Part shown: in pieces, positions 32,186 to 40,062 of the stretch | Layout of the letters: every line of letters begins with the position of its first letter | Position numbering within the stretch: the first letter of the stretch is position 1 | IMG/VR virus record: IMGVR_UViG_3300020055_000012 | Coordinates: 15,405 to 79,404 of that record | From: a virus | Length of the DNA: 64,000 bases | Direction: 5' to 3' (one strand) | Program-made: the position numbers and the translations under genes | The notes under the pieces: model-generated | What the model saw: only the letters and a program-made list of their open reading frames with translations | Told to the model about the DNA's origin: nothing | Database searches by the model: none

Positions 32186-32260
32186 ATGAAAAAGTATAAC
32201 TCAATATCAATAATTAGAAGGATAAGAATAGAGTCTTGTCCCTGTCTAGATATTGTATAA
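32186..32260 (+). CDS. Leader peptide 1 (MKKYNSISIIRRIRIESCPCLDIV) of the Ile/Arg tRNA array attenuator
   Basis: Read by hand; codons 7-15 are ATA TCA ATA ATT AGA AGG ATA AGA ATA; contains the antiterminator strand. Confidence 0.75.
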   Translation: MKKYNSISIIRRIRIESCPCLDIV

Positions 32261-32318
32261 ATTTGAGTTATCAAAAATACTAAAAGGTCTGGGCAGAATT
32301 GTCTAGACCTTTTTTTTT
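32242..32318 (+). promoter_or_regulatory. Attenuator 1: antiterminator (32242-32251 with 32287-32296) versus terminator (32282-32318)
   Basis: CTGTCTAGAT in the leader mimics the terminator 3' arm TTGTCTAGACC and can pair with the 5' arm GTCTGGGCAG; 9-T tract. Confidence 0.75.
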
Positions 32319-32352
32319 GTCGTAAATATTAGCTGTTTTTGCGACAAAAAAC

Positions 32353-32424
32353 ACTCTAGTAGCTCAGTGGTCAGAGCACCAATCTTATAAGTTGGAGGTG
32401 AGGGTTCAATCCCCTCCTAGAGTA
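32353..32424 (+). tRNA. tRNA-Ile(UAU)
   Basis: Acceptor ACTCTAG/CTAGAGT; anticodon arm CCAAT-CTTATAA-GTTGG; GTTCAAT T loop. Confidence 0.9.
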
Positions 32425-32521
32425 CAAGAAGAAAAAAATAATTTTATTTTTTGTAATAAAGTTATATATTTGTCGTTAGATAAGAGAAGGTTCTTTGAAA
32501 TGTTGGAAAAGTAATTTAAAT

Positions 32522-32805
32522 GGACGGGTAGCTCAGCTGGATAGAGCATCTGCCTTTAAGCGTAAATAGGAGCTAAATAGTGGAAACGCTATTGTGCACA
32601 AACCCTCAAATTCGGTGAAGCCTTTAAAATGGTAATACCGAGCCAAGCCCAAACGGGAAGGTGTAGAGACTTGACGGGGGTTGTCTAAGTCACTTTGTGA
32701 TATGATTGAGATAAAGTCCAGACCACAAACGAATTTTCGGTAGTGAAAACTATAGTTGGTAAGCTAAGCAGACGGTCGAAGGTTCGAATCCTTCCTCGTT
32801 CACCA
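32522..32805 (+). tRNA. tRNA-Arg(UCU) interrupted by a group I intron (exons 32522-32556 and 32764-32805)
   Basis: Joined exons give TCTGC-CTTCTAA-GCAGA, acceptor GGACGGG/CTCGTTC and encoded CCA. Confidence 0.9.
32557..32763 (+). ncRNA. Group I intron (IC3-like, no ORF), 207 nt
   Basis: Follows exon U, ends in G; core elements AAATTCGGTGAA (P), AATACCGAGC (Q), GTGTAGAGACTTGACGG (R), AGATAAAGTCC (S). Confidence 0.9.
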
Positions 32806-32808
32806 TTA

Positions 32809-32882
32809 GGTCCTATAACTCAGTTGGTTAGAGTATCTGACTCATAATCAGAAAGTCCTTGGTTCGAGCCCAAGTGGGACCA
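32809..32882 (+). tRNA. tRNA with CAU anticodon, probably Ile2 (lysidine type)
   Basis: GGTCCTA/TGGGACC acceptor; TCTGA-CTCATAA-TCAGA; Ile2 identity inferred from the acceptor stem. Confidence 0.8.
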
Positions 32883-32911
32883 CAAATTTTAGAAGATTAT
32901 AGAAGGCTTTT

Positions 32912-33394
32912 TTAAAGTTTTTCAATTACTTTATCTAAGTCTTCTTCTTCTAAATCATAAAATGATTTTTTTGTATTAGCGTTTCTTGTTAGAATAAGTT
33001 CTTCATTATCCTTGTCTATATACCATATTTTTTTATTTAATTTTATGGTTGGAAAATCTAAAGCTAATAAGTTAATTTTTCTATTAGAACTTATTGCATC
33101 TTCTATTTCTTTTTTAGTTATTCCATAAGCTCTTGATAAGAATCTATATAAGTCAAACCTTCCCTTACCTCCTTTGTGAATAGTGTAACATTCTTCAGAT
33201 TTATCTTTTGGCGGACATAATTTTTGCCCATCTTTTGCTTTTTTAAATTCAACATCTGGGAAGTTTTTTTTAATCCACTTGATTGCTTTTTCCATTTCTT
33301 TAGCATCTCCGTGACTACCTCCTGCTTCTTCTACGTTAGAATAAACTTCTTTTATAACTTGTCTAACTAAATATCTTATTTCTATTTTATCCAT
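32912..33394 (-). CDS. Hypothetical protein, probable head-packaged protein
   Basis: IRYLVRQVIKE N-terminus; TATTTAT upstream. Confidence 0.5.
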   Translation of the reverse strand: MDKIEIRYLVRQVIKEVYSNVEEAGGSHGDAKEMEKAIKWIKKNFPDVEFKKAKDGQKLCPPKDKSEECYTIHKGGKGRFDLYRFLSRAYGITKKEIEDAISSNRKINLLALDFPTIKLNKKIWYIDKDNEELILTRNANTKKSFYDLEEEDLDKVIEKL

Positions 33395-33443
33395 ATTTTT
33401 ATATGTATTTTAATAAATATTTAAAAATTTATATATTTGCAAT

Positions 33444-33836
33444 ATGAAAAAAGAAGAAATAGAAAAAATATTATCAAAAATATCAATGGCACCATCATGT
33501 ATAGATATGGGGTGGAGATGGAGAGTTACAAGCTTAGGAAAATATGGAAACACTTTCGCACTATCTTTTCAGAGGCCAGATACAAACACTGGATTAGTTG
33601 GTACTGGTTATGGCAGAGAATGGTTTGTTCCTAACGATGCAACAGAAAAATTTATAGTAATGACTGCGTGGCTTGCAATAGAATTAATATTAAGACATGA
33701 AGCTATGGAAGCTTTTCATTATGATAATGCAAGAATATTAGACCCACACAAGTCTATTGGCGAATTAGCCCACCCAGATAAGTTAGGAGAAACAGCCAAA
33801 ACTAAATTGCAATTTCCAGGAATAGAAAAAGTTTAA
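33444..33836 (+). CDS. Hypothetical protein
   Basis: ORF track; TATATTTG promoter-like motif just upstream. Confidence 0.55.
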   Translation: MKKEEIEKILSKISMAPSCIDMGWRWRVTSLGKYGNTFALSFQRPDTNTGLVGTGYGREWFVPNDATEKFIVMTAWLAIELILRHEAMEAFHYDNARILDPHKSIGELAHPDKLGETAKTKLQFPGIEKV

Positions 33837-33964
33837 CCTTTAAAATTTGTAACATTTTTAAAAAAAATACGTTATAAGTATTGAATATTAAAAATAAAAT
33901 TTTATATTCGTATCAGATTTAAAAAAATATATTATATTTAATAATAATAAAAATTAAAAAAATT

Positions 33965-34087
33965 TTGCAACTTACAAGTACACATATCGCAAATTATTGT
34001 TCCAATTCGAAAGTCTTTGGAAATACAACGATGAGTCATGATGATAATAAATCAGGATTTAAAAGGGTGTGCTATGATGTAAGTTAA
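33965..34087 (+). CDS. Leader peptide 2 (TTG start; MQLTSTHIANYCSNSKVFGNTTMSHDDNKSGFKRVCYDVS; alternative in-frame ATG at 34031)
   Basis: Read by hand; enriched in amino acids of the downstream tRNA array; contains the antiterminator strand. Confidence 0.7.
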   Translation: MQLTSTHIANYCSNSKVFGNTTMSHDDNKSGFKRVCYDVS

Positions 34088-34146
34088 GCGCATAAAATAA
34101 CTAAAGTTATACACACCCGAACAAGTAAAGTTGTTCGGGTTTTTTT
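34065..34146 (+). promoter_or_regulatory. Attenuator 2: antiterminator (34065-34078 with 34106-34118) versus terminator (34115-34146)
   Basis: GGGTGTG/CACACCC overlaps terminator stem ACCCGAACAA/TTGTTCGGGT + T tract. Confidence 0.8.
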
Positions 34147-34164
34147 ATGCTTAAAAATTGAAAA

Positions 34165-34683
34165 ATGGAATTTAAAGGAAAATATAAAGATTGGTACGAT
34201 AGATTAGTAAAAGCAAATTATGGAGCTAGGTACGGTAAAGAACAAAATGAAAGAATTGTAAAACTAGTAAAAATTTATATTGAGTGGGAAGAAGAAGAGT
34301 TTTGGAAAAATAAAAGAGAAAAGCTTGAAAAGGATATAAAAGATAAAGATAAGATTGATAAAATCTTAGAGTATGAAAGAAAAAGGTATAACGGTGAAGA
34401 GAGAGTAAAAGGTATCGAATGGACTAGAGAGAGAGATTTGGAATTGTTAAAAAAAGCAATTCAAAAACAAGAACTAGAAGATGGAGCTTGGTACGATTGT
34501 GAAGAAGATGCAAAAAATGTTGCAAGATTTGGCGGAATAGTACAATGGAATGAAAAAAGACAACAGTTCCGAGCTCCAGGTCAACAACAATTTGGTGCAG
34601 ATGGATATCTTGACCATTGGGCAGATGTTATAGATGAAGGATATGCAGGATTTGTTCCAATGTGGAAAGTGAAAAAAGAATGA
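34165..34683 (+). CDS. Hypothetical protein inside tRNA array 2 operon
   Basis: ORF track; first gene after attenuator 2. Confidence 0.6.
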   Translation: MEFKGKYKDWYDRLVKANYGARYGKEQNERIVKLVKIYIEWEEEEFWKNKREKLEKDIKDKDKIDKILEYERKRYNGEERVKGIEWTRERDLELLKKAIQKQELEDGAWYDCEEDAKNVARFGGIVQWNEKRQQFRAPGQQQFGADGYLDHWADVIDEGYAGFVPMWKVKKE

Positions 34684-34708
34684 AGTGTTATTTAAAATAT
34701 TAAAATAC

Positions 34709-39302: not shown

Positions 39303-39304
39303 AA

Positions 39305-39387
39305 GGAAGTGTTGAGCAATTGGTTGGCTCGCCTGTCTGTAAAACAGGTTCTTTTTAGACTTGAAGGTTCGAATCCTTCCACTTCCA
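39305..39387 (+). tRNA. tRNA-Tyr(GUA)
   Basis: CCTGT-CTGTAAA-ACAGG; variable arm. Confidence 0.88.
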
Positions 39388-39393
39388 CAAAAA

Positions 39394-39465
39394 GCAAGAT
39401 GTAGCTTAACTGGTAAAGCATCTGCCTTCCAAGCAGAGGACGGAGTTCGAATCTCACATCTTGCT
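39394..39465 (+). tRNA. tRNA-Gly(UCC)
   Basis: TCTGC-CTTCCAA-GCAGA; U discriminator. Confidence 0.88.
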
Positions 39466-39547
39466 CTCTAGAGTAGTTTGCTGATTTAAGGTCTTATAAT
39501 CAGACGGGATGGTCACCTCTGTTTGAAGTGCAGTTAATAACCGTAAT

Positions 39548-39620
39548 ACGTCTGTAGTTCAATTGGTAGAATGACGGTCTCCAAAACCGTTGGTTGTAAG
39601 TTCGAATCTTACCAGACGTG
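39548..39620 (+). tRNA. tRNA-Trp(CCA)
   Basis: ACGGT-CTCCAAA-ACCGT. Confidence 0.9.
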
Positions 39621-39626
39621 CAAATT

Positions 39627-39699
39627 CGGGGTGTGGCGCAGTTGGTAGCGCGGGGCGTTTGGGACGCTCAGGTCGTCAGTTCGAGTCTGGCTACCCCGA
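39627..39699 (+). tRNA. tRNA-Pro(UGG)
   Basis: CGGGGTG start; GGGCG-TTTGGGA-CGCTC. Confidence 0.92.
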
Positions 39700-39704
39700 C
39701 ATAT

Positions 39705-39778
39705 ACGCCTATAGCTCAGCTGGTTAGAGCATTTGACTGATACTCAAAAGGTCAGTGGTTCAAATCCACTTAGGCGTA
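39705..39778 (+). tRNA. tRNA-Ile(GAU)
   Basis: TTTGA-CTGATAC-TCAAA. Confidence 0.9.
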
Positions 39779-39787
39779 CAAATAAAT

Positions 39788-39861
39788 GCTCCTATAGCTC
39801 AATTGAATAGAGCGCCAAACTACGGATTTGGAGGTTGAAAGTTTGAATCTTTCTGGGAGTA
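39788..39861 (+). tRNA. tRNA-Arg(ACG)
   Basis: CCAAA-CTACGGA-TTTGG. Confidence 0.88.
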
Positions 39862-39872
39862 CATATAATAAT

Positions 39873-39947
39873 GCCTCATTAGCTCAGATGGCTGAGAGCG
39901 ACTGATTTGTACTCAGTAGGTCGGGGGTTCGAGTCCCTCATGAGGCT
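39873..39947 (+). tRNA. tRNA-Thr(UGU)
   Basis: ACTGA-TTTGTAC-TCAGT. Confidence 0.9.
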
Positions 39948-39956
39948 CTAAAATAT

Positions 39957-40031
39957 GGGCATATGACCGAGTGGTTTAGGTGCTGGATTGCAAACCCAGA
40001 TACGCTAGTTCAAATCTAGCTATGCCCTCCA
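39957..40031 (+). tRNA. tRNA-Cys(GCA)
   Basis: CTGGA-TTGCAAA-CCCAG; U discriminator + CCA. Confidence 0.9.
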
Positions 40032-40032
40032 G

Positions 40033-40062
40033 AACTCCAATGATAAAAAGTTGGAGTTTTTT
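40033..40062 (+). terminator. Terminator closing tRNA array 3
   Basis: AACTCCAA-loop-TTGGAGTT + T tract. Confidence 0.8.

Follow-up and report, generated by a model that had tools for sequence, protein, structure and literature searches.

Why and when phages use tRNA genes of their own has been debated for decades; the reasons proposed include a compensating role in codon usage, the replacement of host tRNAs that decay and evasion of defences that cleave tRNA. The question is raised by a stretch of 64,000 nucleotides (nt) of viral DNA (positions 15,405 to 79,404 of IMG/VR record IMGVR_UViG_3300020055_000012, hereafter the window), which belongs to a marine phage with a genome of 79.4 kb and 30% G+C that recurs in salt-marsh metagenomes. 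ARAGORN and Rfam together place 18-19 tRNA genes in it, all on the + strand and in three groups: array 1 (Ile(UAU), Arg(UCU) and a tRNA with a CAU anticodon), array 2 (a Ser(UGA)-like tRNA, Ser(GCU), Lys, His, Asp, Asn, Val, Phe and Met) and array 3 (Ala, Tyr, Gly, Trp, Pro, Ile(GAU), Arg(ACG), Thr and Cys). A tRNA search that included introns found none beyond these arrays in the remaining genome. Each of the three arrays is preceded by a Bacteroidota-type promoter-like element, a short open reading frame (ORF) carrying an antiterminator strand, and an intrinsic terminator. Why should a phage place a terminator in front of its tRNA genes? The initial annotation had answered that the short ORFs are codon-matched leader peptides of attenuators. 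We consider it likely that the arrays are indeed under ribosome-mediated attenuation, with RNA polymerase admitted to the tRNA genes when the matched codons are decoded slowly, which would provide feedback on tRNA supply. The anatomy of these cassettes, their alternative pairings and the covariation of leader with array were demonstrated across many phages. Coordinates refer to the window unless a locus label (L0xx or L18x) is given, in which case they are that locus's own.

Leader codons and the tRNA genes behind them

The leader of array 1 (L1, 24 codons, 32186-32260, + strand) carries four ATA and three AGA/AGG codons in a run of nine (32204-32230). In the leader of array 2 (L2, 33965-34087, + strand, beginning at TTG 33965 or at the in-frame ATG 34031), 17 of the 21 sensor codons (34001-34063) are cognate to the array, and in that of array 3 (L3, 36 codons, 39049-39159, + strand) so are 16 of 18 (39064-39117), with all nine amino acids of array 3 included; the counts given in the initial annotation thus hold at the amino-acid level. 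In a cross matrix, no amino acid of the matching array was missing from any leader, and no leader matched the other two arrays. Counted from the ATG, 17 codons of L2 contain 1, 13 and 3 that are cognate to arrays 1, 2 and 3, respectively, and the corresponding numbers for 35 codons of L3 are 2, 12 and 16. When each stop-free window in all six frames of the full 79.4-kb genome was scanned, the L1 window scored highest for array 1, L3 was one of only two loci with all nine array-3 tRNAs represented within 18 codons, and L2 was among a few loci at which all nine array-2 tRNAs are represented. Three such rare windows, on the correct strand and each right before the matching array, cannot be chance.

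The match had also been claimed to reach the codon family, and this stands for the two amino acids in which families are split between tRNAs, Ile (ATT/ATA) and Arg (CGN/AGR), and for those only. Leaders of the L3 family use ATT alone for Ile and CGY for Arg, matching Ile(GAU) and Arg(ACG), despite a genome in which ATA makes up 62% of the Ile codons and AGA/AGG 94% of the Arg codons; given the same usage, L1 has no more ATA and AGR codons than synonymous choice would lead one to expect. The extreme ATA/AGR usage fits the carriage of Ile(UAU), the CAU tRNA and Arg(UCU) by the phage. The informative codons fit their arrays better than expected if tRNAs with U34 read whole four-codon boxes (z = 2.9). 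Codons ending in C or G, rare in this genome, are used in the leaders; rare leader codons are known from leuL, and by analogy with the leu leader they would raise the sensitivity of a stall sensor.

Relatives were collected from IMG/VR, 17 loci through a helicase query and more through further queries and pattern scans. In the comparison that the initial annotation had proposed, the codons of the leader varied together with the tRNAs of the array, both in relatives and in unrelated leaders. The leader-1 cassette and Ile(UAU) are either both present or both absent in relatives: L002 and L008 have retained Ile(UAU) together with the terminator and leader 1, in which ATA and AGR codons occur three times each, and L001 and L015 have neither leader cassette nor Ile(UAU), their Arg(UCU) and CAU tRNA standing behind a plain promoter. 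Homologues of L3 occur in L039/L057, L063 and L072. In L039/L057 AAG takes the place of the window's CGC and the array has an extra Lys(CUU), the other replacements remaining within the array's amino-acid set; in L063 and L072 the leaders gain Val, Met and Asp codons and the arrays gain Val, Met and Asp tRNAs.

Further cassettes, which are more telling because their leaders are unrelated in sequence, follow the same rule. L059 has two, one with a leader rich in Leu, Val and Cys before Cys, Val, Leu and Leu tRNAs, the other with a leader rich in Phe, Glu, Ala, Asp and Ser before tRNAs for Phe, Glu (three), possibly Ser, Asp (two) and Ala. The first leader of L063, rich in Asn, His, Lys and Phe, precedes Phe, Asn and His tRNAs and three Lys tRNAs; nested within a larger array of this locus is another attenuator (reverse strand, 3594-3708), whose leader is matched to Lys only, with five Lys codons in seven, followed by a terminator and, directly behind, three Lys tRNAs, so that attenuators in series are possible within one transcription unit. 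In L031 a leader rich in Thr, Arg, Pro, Ala, Val and Gly is followed by tRNAs for exactly those six. That of L023, rich in Pro, Arg, Glu, Thr, Val and Ala, is followed by four Glu tRNAs, Arg(ACG), Pro, Arg(CCU), Thr, Ala and Val, and its Arg codons, CGA and AGG, fit the two Arg tRNAs.

Cassettes are also present in three cultured Flavobacteriia phages, Cellulophaga phi4:1 (three), Tenacibaculum Gundel_1 (two) and Cellulophaga phi10:1 (one), where they had gone unrecognised, being unannotated or misannotated. In the first cassette of phi4:1, an unbroken run of eleven codons for Gln, Arg, Leu, His, Glu and Pro precedes tRNAs for Pro, Glu, Gln, His, Leu, Leu and Arg; the second, annotated inside gp075, precedes Ala, Lys, Ile, Gly, Met, Asp, Thr, Val, Arg, Met and Tyr; the third has a leader rich in Tyr, Asn, Ser, Trp and Phe before Tyr, Ser, Trp and Phe. 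The phi10:1 leader carries codons for Tyr and Phe, amino acids whose tRNAs follow it. The expectation that Leu, Gln and Glu tRNAs would sit behind leaders rich in those residues was therefore borne out in relatives and cultured phages, but not in this genome, which has no Leu, Gln or Glu tRNA anywhere. The gene gp075 (L184 3990-4109), annotated as a hypothetical protein, starts within a promoter repeat; the 3'-terminal two thirds of the gene form the leader before the Ala-to-Tyr array, and the true start codon is probably a GTG or ATA a few codons past the -7 box.

To quantify the match, 14 leader families (from this phage, its IMG/VR relatives and the three cultured phages) were compared with all 14 arrays, using the whole ORF at the amino-acid level. 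Every amino acid of the own array was present in 14/14 leaders, and the own array ranked first for 12 leaders and second for the other 2. The diagonal z sum was 44.7, as against 0.6 +/- 5.9 with arrays permuted, and none of 500,000 permutations reached 44.7. Because some ORFs had been picked by eye, the comparison was repeated with an automatic rule, which takes the longest ATG-started ORF ending within 90 nt of a terminator with ARAGORN tRNAs downstream; for the resulting 18 cassettes the z sum was 51.4 versus 1.7 +/- 6.3 (0/300,000 permutations). The permutation check by which the initial annotation had proposed to judge leader/array matching across relatives thus came out clearly in its favour. 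The same pipeline found no matched cassette in a small control of five tRNA regions (T4-like, T5-like, cyanophage, Klebsiella-phage and crAss-like).

Could the leaders nevertheless be ordinary small protein genes with terminators of their own, or no genes at all, the resemblance to the arrays being a coincidence or an effect of composition? Their peptides do begin alike (Met-Lys-Thr/Asn...), and in phi4:1 one of them falls within an annotated hypothetical protein. The conserved N-terminal codons are, however, accounted for by the fact that they form an RNA strand (region 1, described below), the substitutions between homologues follow membership of the array set and not residue chemistry, and neither the permutation counts nor the frame-specificity of the match is compatible with coincidence. 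This explanation is therefore strongly disfavoured, and we give it hardly any credence.

The frame-specificity emerged when the leaders were read in all three frames: the z sum of 44.7 in the ATG frame fell to -6.3 and -6.6 in the other two, and enrichment confined to the ATG frame argues for translation and against a composition effect. This bears also on whether the codon string might act untranslated, by base-pairing to anticodons in the nearby tRNAs, whether as a T-box-like sensor with several specifiers or as a decoy or chaperone. Such a string is by construction complementary to the anticodons, and T-box leaders set a precedent for sensing tRNA through codon-anticodon pairing. Against this, in each cassette a start codon in A-rich surroundings opens the frame, which no stop codon closes until past region 2, the match is confined to the ATG frame, homologues differ by in-frame changes, and there is neither a match to the T-box or any other such Rfam family at E <= 1 nor a conserved element that would bind a tRNA 3' end. 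An untranslated sensor accordingly seems very unlikely to us.

Alternative pairings, terminators and promoters

The initial annotation had recognised the geometry of trp/his-type attenuation in the three leaders, and this was upheld by the recurrence of the 1:2, 2:3 and 3:4 pairings and by covariation in their flanks. Minimum-free-energy (MFE) folds of 13 cassettes gave one and the same architecture. Region 1 (codons ~3-9) pairs with region 2, located 5-9 codons before the stop, so that the sensor codons lie in the 1:2 loop. A second complementary partner of region 2 is region 3, the 5' arm of the terminator (3:4). The 2:3 duplex has an energy of -11 to -19 kcal/mol and is stronger than at least 97% of shuffles in 9 of the 13 cassettes, including ones with unrelated pairing sequences. 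For L2 (-13.6 kcal/mol) and L3 (-16.9 kcal/mol) none of 300 shuffles was as strong in either case. The 1:2 pairing comprises 6-11 contiguous base pairs in 10/10 cassettes of the GGGTGTG type, with compensatory changes in the flanks.

According to MFE and duplex folds, regions 1 (32198-32218) and 2 (32242-32269) of L1 form a hairpin around the sensor (32198-32269, + strand), and 32242-32250 can alternatively pair with the 5' arm of terminator 1, which has a 14-bp stem (32282-32313) and a T9 run (32282-32321 in all, + strand). In L2 (33976-34072, + strand) region 1 lies at 33976-33985 and region 2 (GGGTGTG) at 34065-34072, and region 3 (34111-34119) overlaps terminator 2 (34115-34140 plus a T run; 34111-34147 together, + strand). 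The L3 hairpin (39062-39135, + strand) likewise surrounds the sensor with regions 1 (39062-39070) and 2 (39125-39135), and region 3 (39180-39189) overlaps terminator 3 (39184-39207 plus a T7 run; 39180-39214 together, + strand). In a scan of 30000-42000 the three leader terminators were 3 of the 4 top-ranked terminator-like sites. L2 and L3 have the antiterminator and terminator sequence in common, a motif present at only these two sites of the window. As paralogues share terminator and antiterminator and differ in sensor codons, the cassettes appear to be easily rewritten.

The promoter-like elements consist of TTG, about 19 nt and a TAnnTTTG-like -7 box, that is, the -33/-7 type of Bacteroidota. 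Sequence reading places that of leader 1 at 32148-32176 (+ strand; TTG, 18-19 nt, TATATTTA), that of leader 2 at 33881-33910 (+ strand; TTG, 19 nt, TATATTCG), the -7 box of which matches TAnnTTTG perfectly in L055 and L056, and that of leader 3 at 38968-38997 (+ strand; TTG, 19 nt, TATATTTG). The -7 type seen at leader 1 thus precedes the other two leaders as well, and also the cassettes in relatives.

Whether the terminators can govern the tRNA genes depends on what lies behind them. The T run of terminator 3 is 12 nt from tRNA-Ala, which leaves array 3 no room for a promoter of its own, and terminator 1 is only ~31 nt from tRNA-Ile, so that both tRNAs must be transcribed through the terminators. 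The initial annotation had arrays behind all three leaders, a description that needs correcting for array 2. Behind terminator 2 comes a region (34165-35030, + strand) with a 172-aa ORF (34165-34683), the Ser(UGA)-like tRNA with which the array starts (34709-34799) and a 70-aa ORF (34818-35030), which separates this tRNA from Ser(GCU), so that the array is not contiguous at its first two genes either. Neither ORF matches a Pfam or PHROG family, and no TAnnTTTG box occurs between 34140 and 35033. The initial annotation would also have been contradicted by transcription of the tRNAs mainly from promoters downstream of the terminators. No promoter-like -7 box was found behind the terminators of arrays 2 and 3 or before Ile(UAU), but a candidate box (TATATTTG, 32465-32472, + strand) stands 5' of tRNA-Arg(UCU). 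The same sequence is the only element before Arg(UCU) and the CAU tRNA in L001/L015, and these two tRNAs of array 1 probably have a promoter of their own in addition. A -7-like box at 39219 was dropped as a promoter, for it overlaps the 5' end of tRNA-Ala and a transcript would start inside the tRNA.

RNA-library data came from one marine metatranscriptome, as assembled contigs that are patchy, of low depth and possibly DNA-containing, so that uncovered stretches carry no information. A contig matching 32195-32426 without mismatch spans the L1 ORF, terminator 1 and tRNA-Ile(UAU), ending at the tRNA 3' end, which is a weak hint that leader 1 and this tRNA lie on one transcript. A second contig (39051-39228) was not counted as bridging terminator 3, as it extends only 14 nt beyond the T run.

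From these elements we propose the following mechanism. Transcription would start at the Bacteroidota-type promoter, and a ribosome would translate the short leader, whose mid-leader codons are those of exactly the amino acids served downstream, with codon-family matching for Ile and Arg. If any matched charged tRNA were scarce, the ribosome would linger in the 1:2 loop and block the 1:2 hairpin; region 2 would then take region 3, no terminator would form and the polymerase would read into the tRNA genes. With fast decoding the ribosome would instead pass region 2 and reach the stop codon, region 2 being masked or re-paired with region 1, so that the 3:4 terminator could form and end transcription. 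Without translation, both 1:2 and 3:4 would form, making the default state off. Newly made tRNAs would relieve the stall, giving a negative-feedback controller of tRNA supply, and each leader would act as an OR gate over several tRNA species.

Several points weigh against this scheme. Leader translation, stall-dependent read-through and feedback are all inferred, and the RNA support consists of assembled RNA-library contigs possibly containing DNA. The start of L2 is probably the TTG at 33965, which is favoured because region 1 sits upstream of ATG 34031; this TTG and the frame are kept in L055 and L056. The energies of the 1:2 duplexes are not better than those of mononucleotide shuffles. Folding with and without a ribosome mask, which the initial annotation had suggested as a check, gave a divided answer: a ribosome that has reached the L1 stop codon covers region 2, as in trp, but constrained equilibrium folding did not separate the on and off states of L2 and L3. 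The L3 stop codon lies 25 nt past region 2, and a terminating ribosome would sit in the short loop between regions 2 and 3 without directly masking region 2. Moreover, with the RNA extended up to region 3, the 2:3 pairing is favoured at equilibrium even without a ribosome; the model therefore depends on co-transcriptional folding order, as for trp. At the codon level, strict wobble rules gave no enrichment, leader codons being no more decodable by array anticodons than expected (z = -0.6), and there are misfitting codons, such as GGG against Gly(GCC) and AGA in the L039 leader against Arg(ACG). Finally, in some relatives without the leader the same tRNAs run from a plain promoter, and in some arrays promoter-like elements lie behind the terminator, namely the box at 32465 of the window and two repeats in L059. 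The latter are 45-nt direct repeats with a TACCTTTG -7-like box (L059 8975-9150), placed between the attenuator terminator and the first tRNA, and may be bypass promoters.

Part of this evidence would suit a different output of the same translated sensors, namely RNase processing or precursor stability, Rho access or the timing of tRNA release, with the hairpin and T run serving mainly as a processing or stability element. Equilibrium folds alone do not predict switching, region 2 is left unmasked at the L3 stop codon, further promoter-like boxes lie behind some terminators and one RNA-library contig passes through terminator 1. The hairpins are nevertheless canonical intrinsic terminators, with GC-rich stems and runs of T7-T9, and the recurrence, in cassettes of unrelated sequence, of a strand that sequesters the terminator 5' arm is hard to explain otherwise than by terminator control. 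We therefore regard a non-terminator output as rather unlikely and retain attenuation as the preferred reading.

Relation to known attenuators and possible role

The classical leaders trpL, hisL, pheL and leuL combine a short translated leader rich in regulatory codons with mutually exclusive 1:2, 2:3 and 3:4 hairpins and an intrinsic terminator, and E. coli thrL (Thr, Ile) and ilvL (Ile, Leu, Val) each respond to more than one amino acid. The phage cassettes resemble them in the translated leader, in the three pairings and in the terminator, with stalling expected to favour the antiterminator. As in those attenuators, an ORF lies between promoter and genes (14/14 families), codons are enriched, an intrinsic terminator follows and the pairings are exclusive. 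They differ from classical attenuators in their output, which is the tRNA genes that read the sensor codons and not biosynthetic enzymes, in having up to ten specificities per leader, in placing the sensor in the 1:2 loop and not in region 1, and in their setting in Bacteroidota phages. No sequence relation to the classical leader families was detected: cmscan of 31500-41000 at E <= 1 gave no match to the Rfam His, Thr, Leu, Trp and Phe leaders or to T-box, and returned only tRNA and spurious low-scoring matches. The genes behind the leaders are tRNA genes plus, behind L2, the two ORFs of no known family, and not the amino-acid biosynthesis, transport or aminoacyl-tRNA synthetase genes that are the usual targets; we see in this the novel point of the system, and it does not touch a mechanistic requirement. 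Mechanistically, we take the cassettes for leader-peptide attenuators, with tRNA genes as a novel output.

Two further kinds of system are close. In pheST/pheM of E. coli and in the His-codon leader of hisS/hisZ in Bacilli, a codon-specific leader governs the decoding machinery of the same codon, as in the phage cassettes, but it is a synthetase of single specificity that is controlled and not tRNA genes. The paper on the hisS/hisZ leader (PMC2965389) does not speak of tRNA genes or tRNA operons. T-box elements, like the cassettes, sense tRNA status through a codon in the 5' leader and act by a terminator/antiterminator switch. They do so, however, by direct binding of uncharged tRNA in an untranslated leader with one specifier codon and a conserved T-box sequence, none of which was seen in the phage cassettes. 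The initial annotation had stated that no attenuator is known whose output is the sensed tRNA set itself, and we likewise met with no account of an attenuator in front of tRNA genes, whether from phages or from other sources, in a full-text collection that does not span all journals. The paper on Gundel_1 mentions its tRNAs but no leader or attenuation.

What might such a sensor respond to? Phage tRNAs that counter host defences provide a context in which replacing specific host tRNAs benefits the phage. The literature on phage tRNAs and tRNA-targeting defences deals with tRNA repertoire and resistance to cleavage, with no demand-sensing regulation in the titles and abstracts (PMC10264068, PMC11555353, PMC12409363). 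We put forward, tentatively, that the cassettes may be a modular and rapidly rewritable tRNA-demand sensor, widespread in phages of Flavobacteriia and possibly used in cellular tRNA operons of Bacteroidota, which would detect the loss of particular host tRNAs during infection (through shut-off, turnover or anticodon nucleases) and answer with exactly the replacement tRNAs, thus acting as a counter-defence sensor that puts out the very molecule it senses. That the trigger might be cleavage of host tRNAs by anticodon-nuclease defences is pure inference; the same sensor would also serve if the signal were codon-usage demand of the phage or the decay of tRNAs of the host.

If attenuation is confirmed, these phages express tRNAs on demand, and the long-standing question of phage tRNA use becomes directly testable because the leader sequence states what the phage monitors. 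Leader-peptide attenuation would then be known with RNA genes as its output, with as many as ten specificities in one sensor and in phages of Bacteroidota, and synthetic sensors of tRNA or codon supply could be modelled on the rewritable cassettes. Since the device is present in cultured Cellulophaga and Tenacibaculum phages, the experiments are feasible now.

The tRNA genes and other features of the region

In array 1, tRNA-Ile(UAU) (32353-32425) and the CAU tRNA, a candidate Met or Ile2 (32809-32883), were called by both ARAGORN and Rfam, and tRNA-Arg(UCU) (32522-32805), which has a 207-nt intron in the anticodon loop, by the ARAGORN intron search (all + strand). The orthologue of this tRNA in relatives has no intron; in L004 it is the tRNA neighbouring Arg(UCU) that apparently has an insert, of 235 nt, instead. 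Rfam gave no group I intron match to the window's intron at E <= 1. An RNA-library joint skips exactly 207 nt at this site, with one flank of only 29 nt.

The Ser(UGA)-like tRNA of array 2 (34709-34799, + strand) was read by eye; it has a long variable arm and in Rfam a weak, sub-threshold tRNA-Sec match alone. A 33-aa hypothetical protein of phi4:1, gp076 (L184 6118-6219), appears to be a Ser(UGA)-like tRNA resembling it. The main part of the array (35033-35856, + strand) comprises Ser(GCU), Lys(UUU), His, Asp, Asn, Val(UAC), Phe and Met(CAU), of which tRNA-Lys(UUU) (35122-35194, + strand) was found by Rfam only. A long-range hairpin element (35683-35781) lies 3' of tRNA-Phe and tRNA-Met, and further on there are two odd tRNA-like sequences with CAU at the anticodon position (35863-35935 and 35946-36025), called by neither ARAGORN nor Rfam. 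Array 3 (39226-40031, + strand), with Ala, Tyr, Gly(UCC), Trp, Pro, Ile(GAU), Arg(ACG), Thr and Cys, ends in a terminator (40031-40063, + strand).

An HNH endonuclease gene (36077-36580) stands beside or within the tRNA region of the window. Gundel_1 has one too (L185 7793-8299), between a leader cassette and the tRNAs of that cassette, and HNH genes at such places suggest mobile-element traffic in the arrays.

Close relatives of the phage were absent from GenBank phages by blastn with array 3 and by tblastn with the helicase, and the 123-aa protein encoded downstream of array 3 led to no related loci. The pattern scans were of low yield: 4 of 37 IMG/VR matches to the terminator alone were relevant, the rest being mostly unrelated GC-rich terminators, and at least 118 loci matched an inverted-repeat pattern, of which 3 have cassettes, 2 of these on an already-known contig.

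The crAss-like phage cr85_1 has no matched leader ORF at its array of at least 17 tRNAs, but a 16-bp inverted repeat with a ~45-nt loop and a T-rich stretch (L065 1640-1730) lies between a TAnnTTTG promoter and these tRNAs and may be a different kind of control element. Outside the tRNA region, a long array of imperfect 42-nt (14-codon) tandem repeats extends over 53030-54430 of the window and is probably the gene of a repetitive structural protein.

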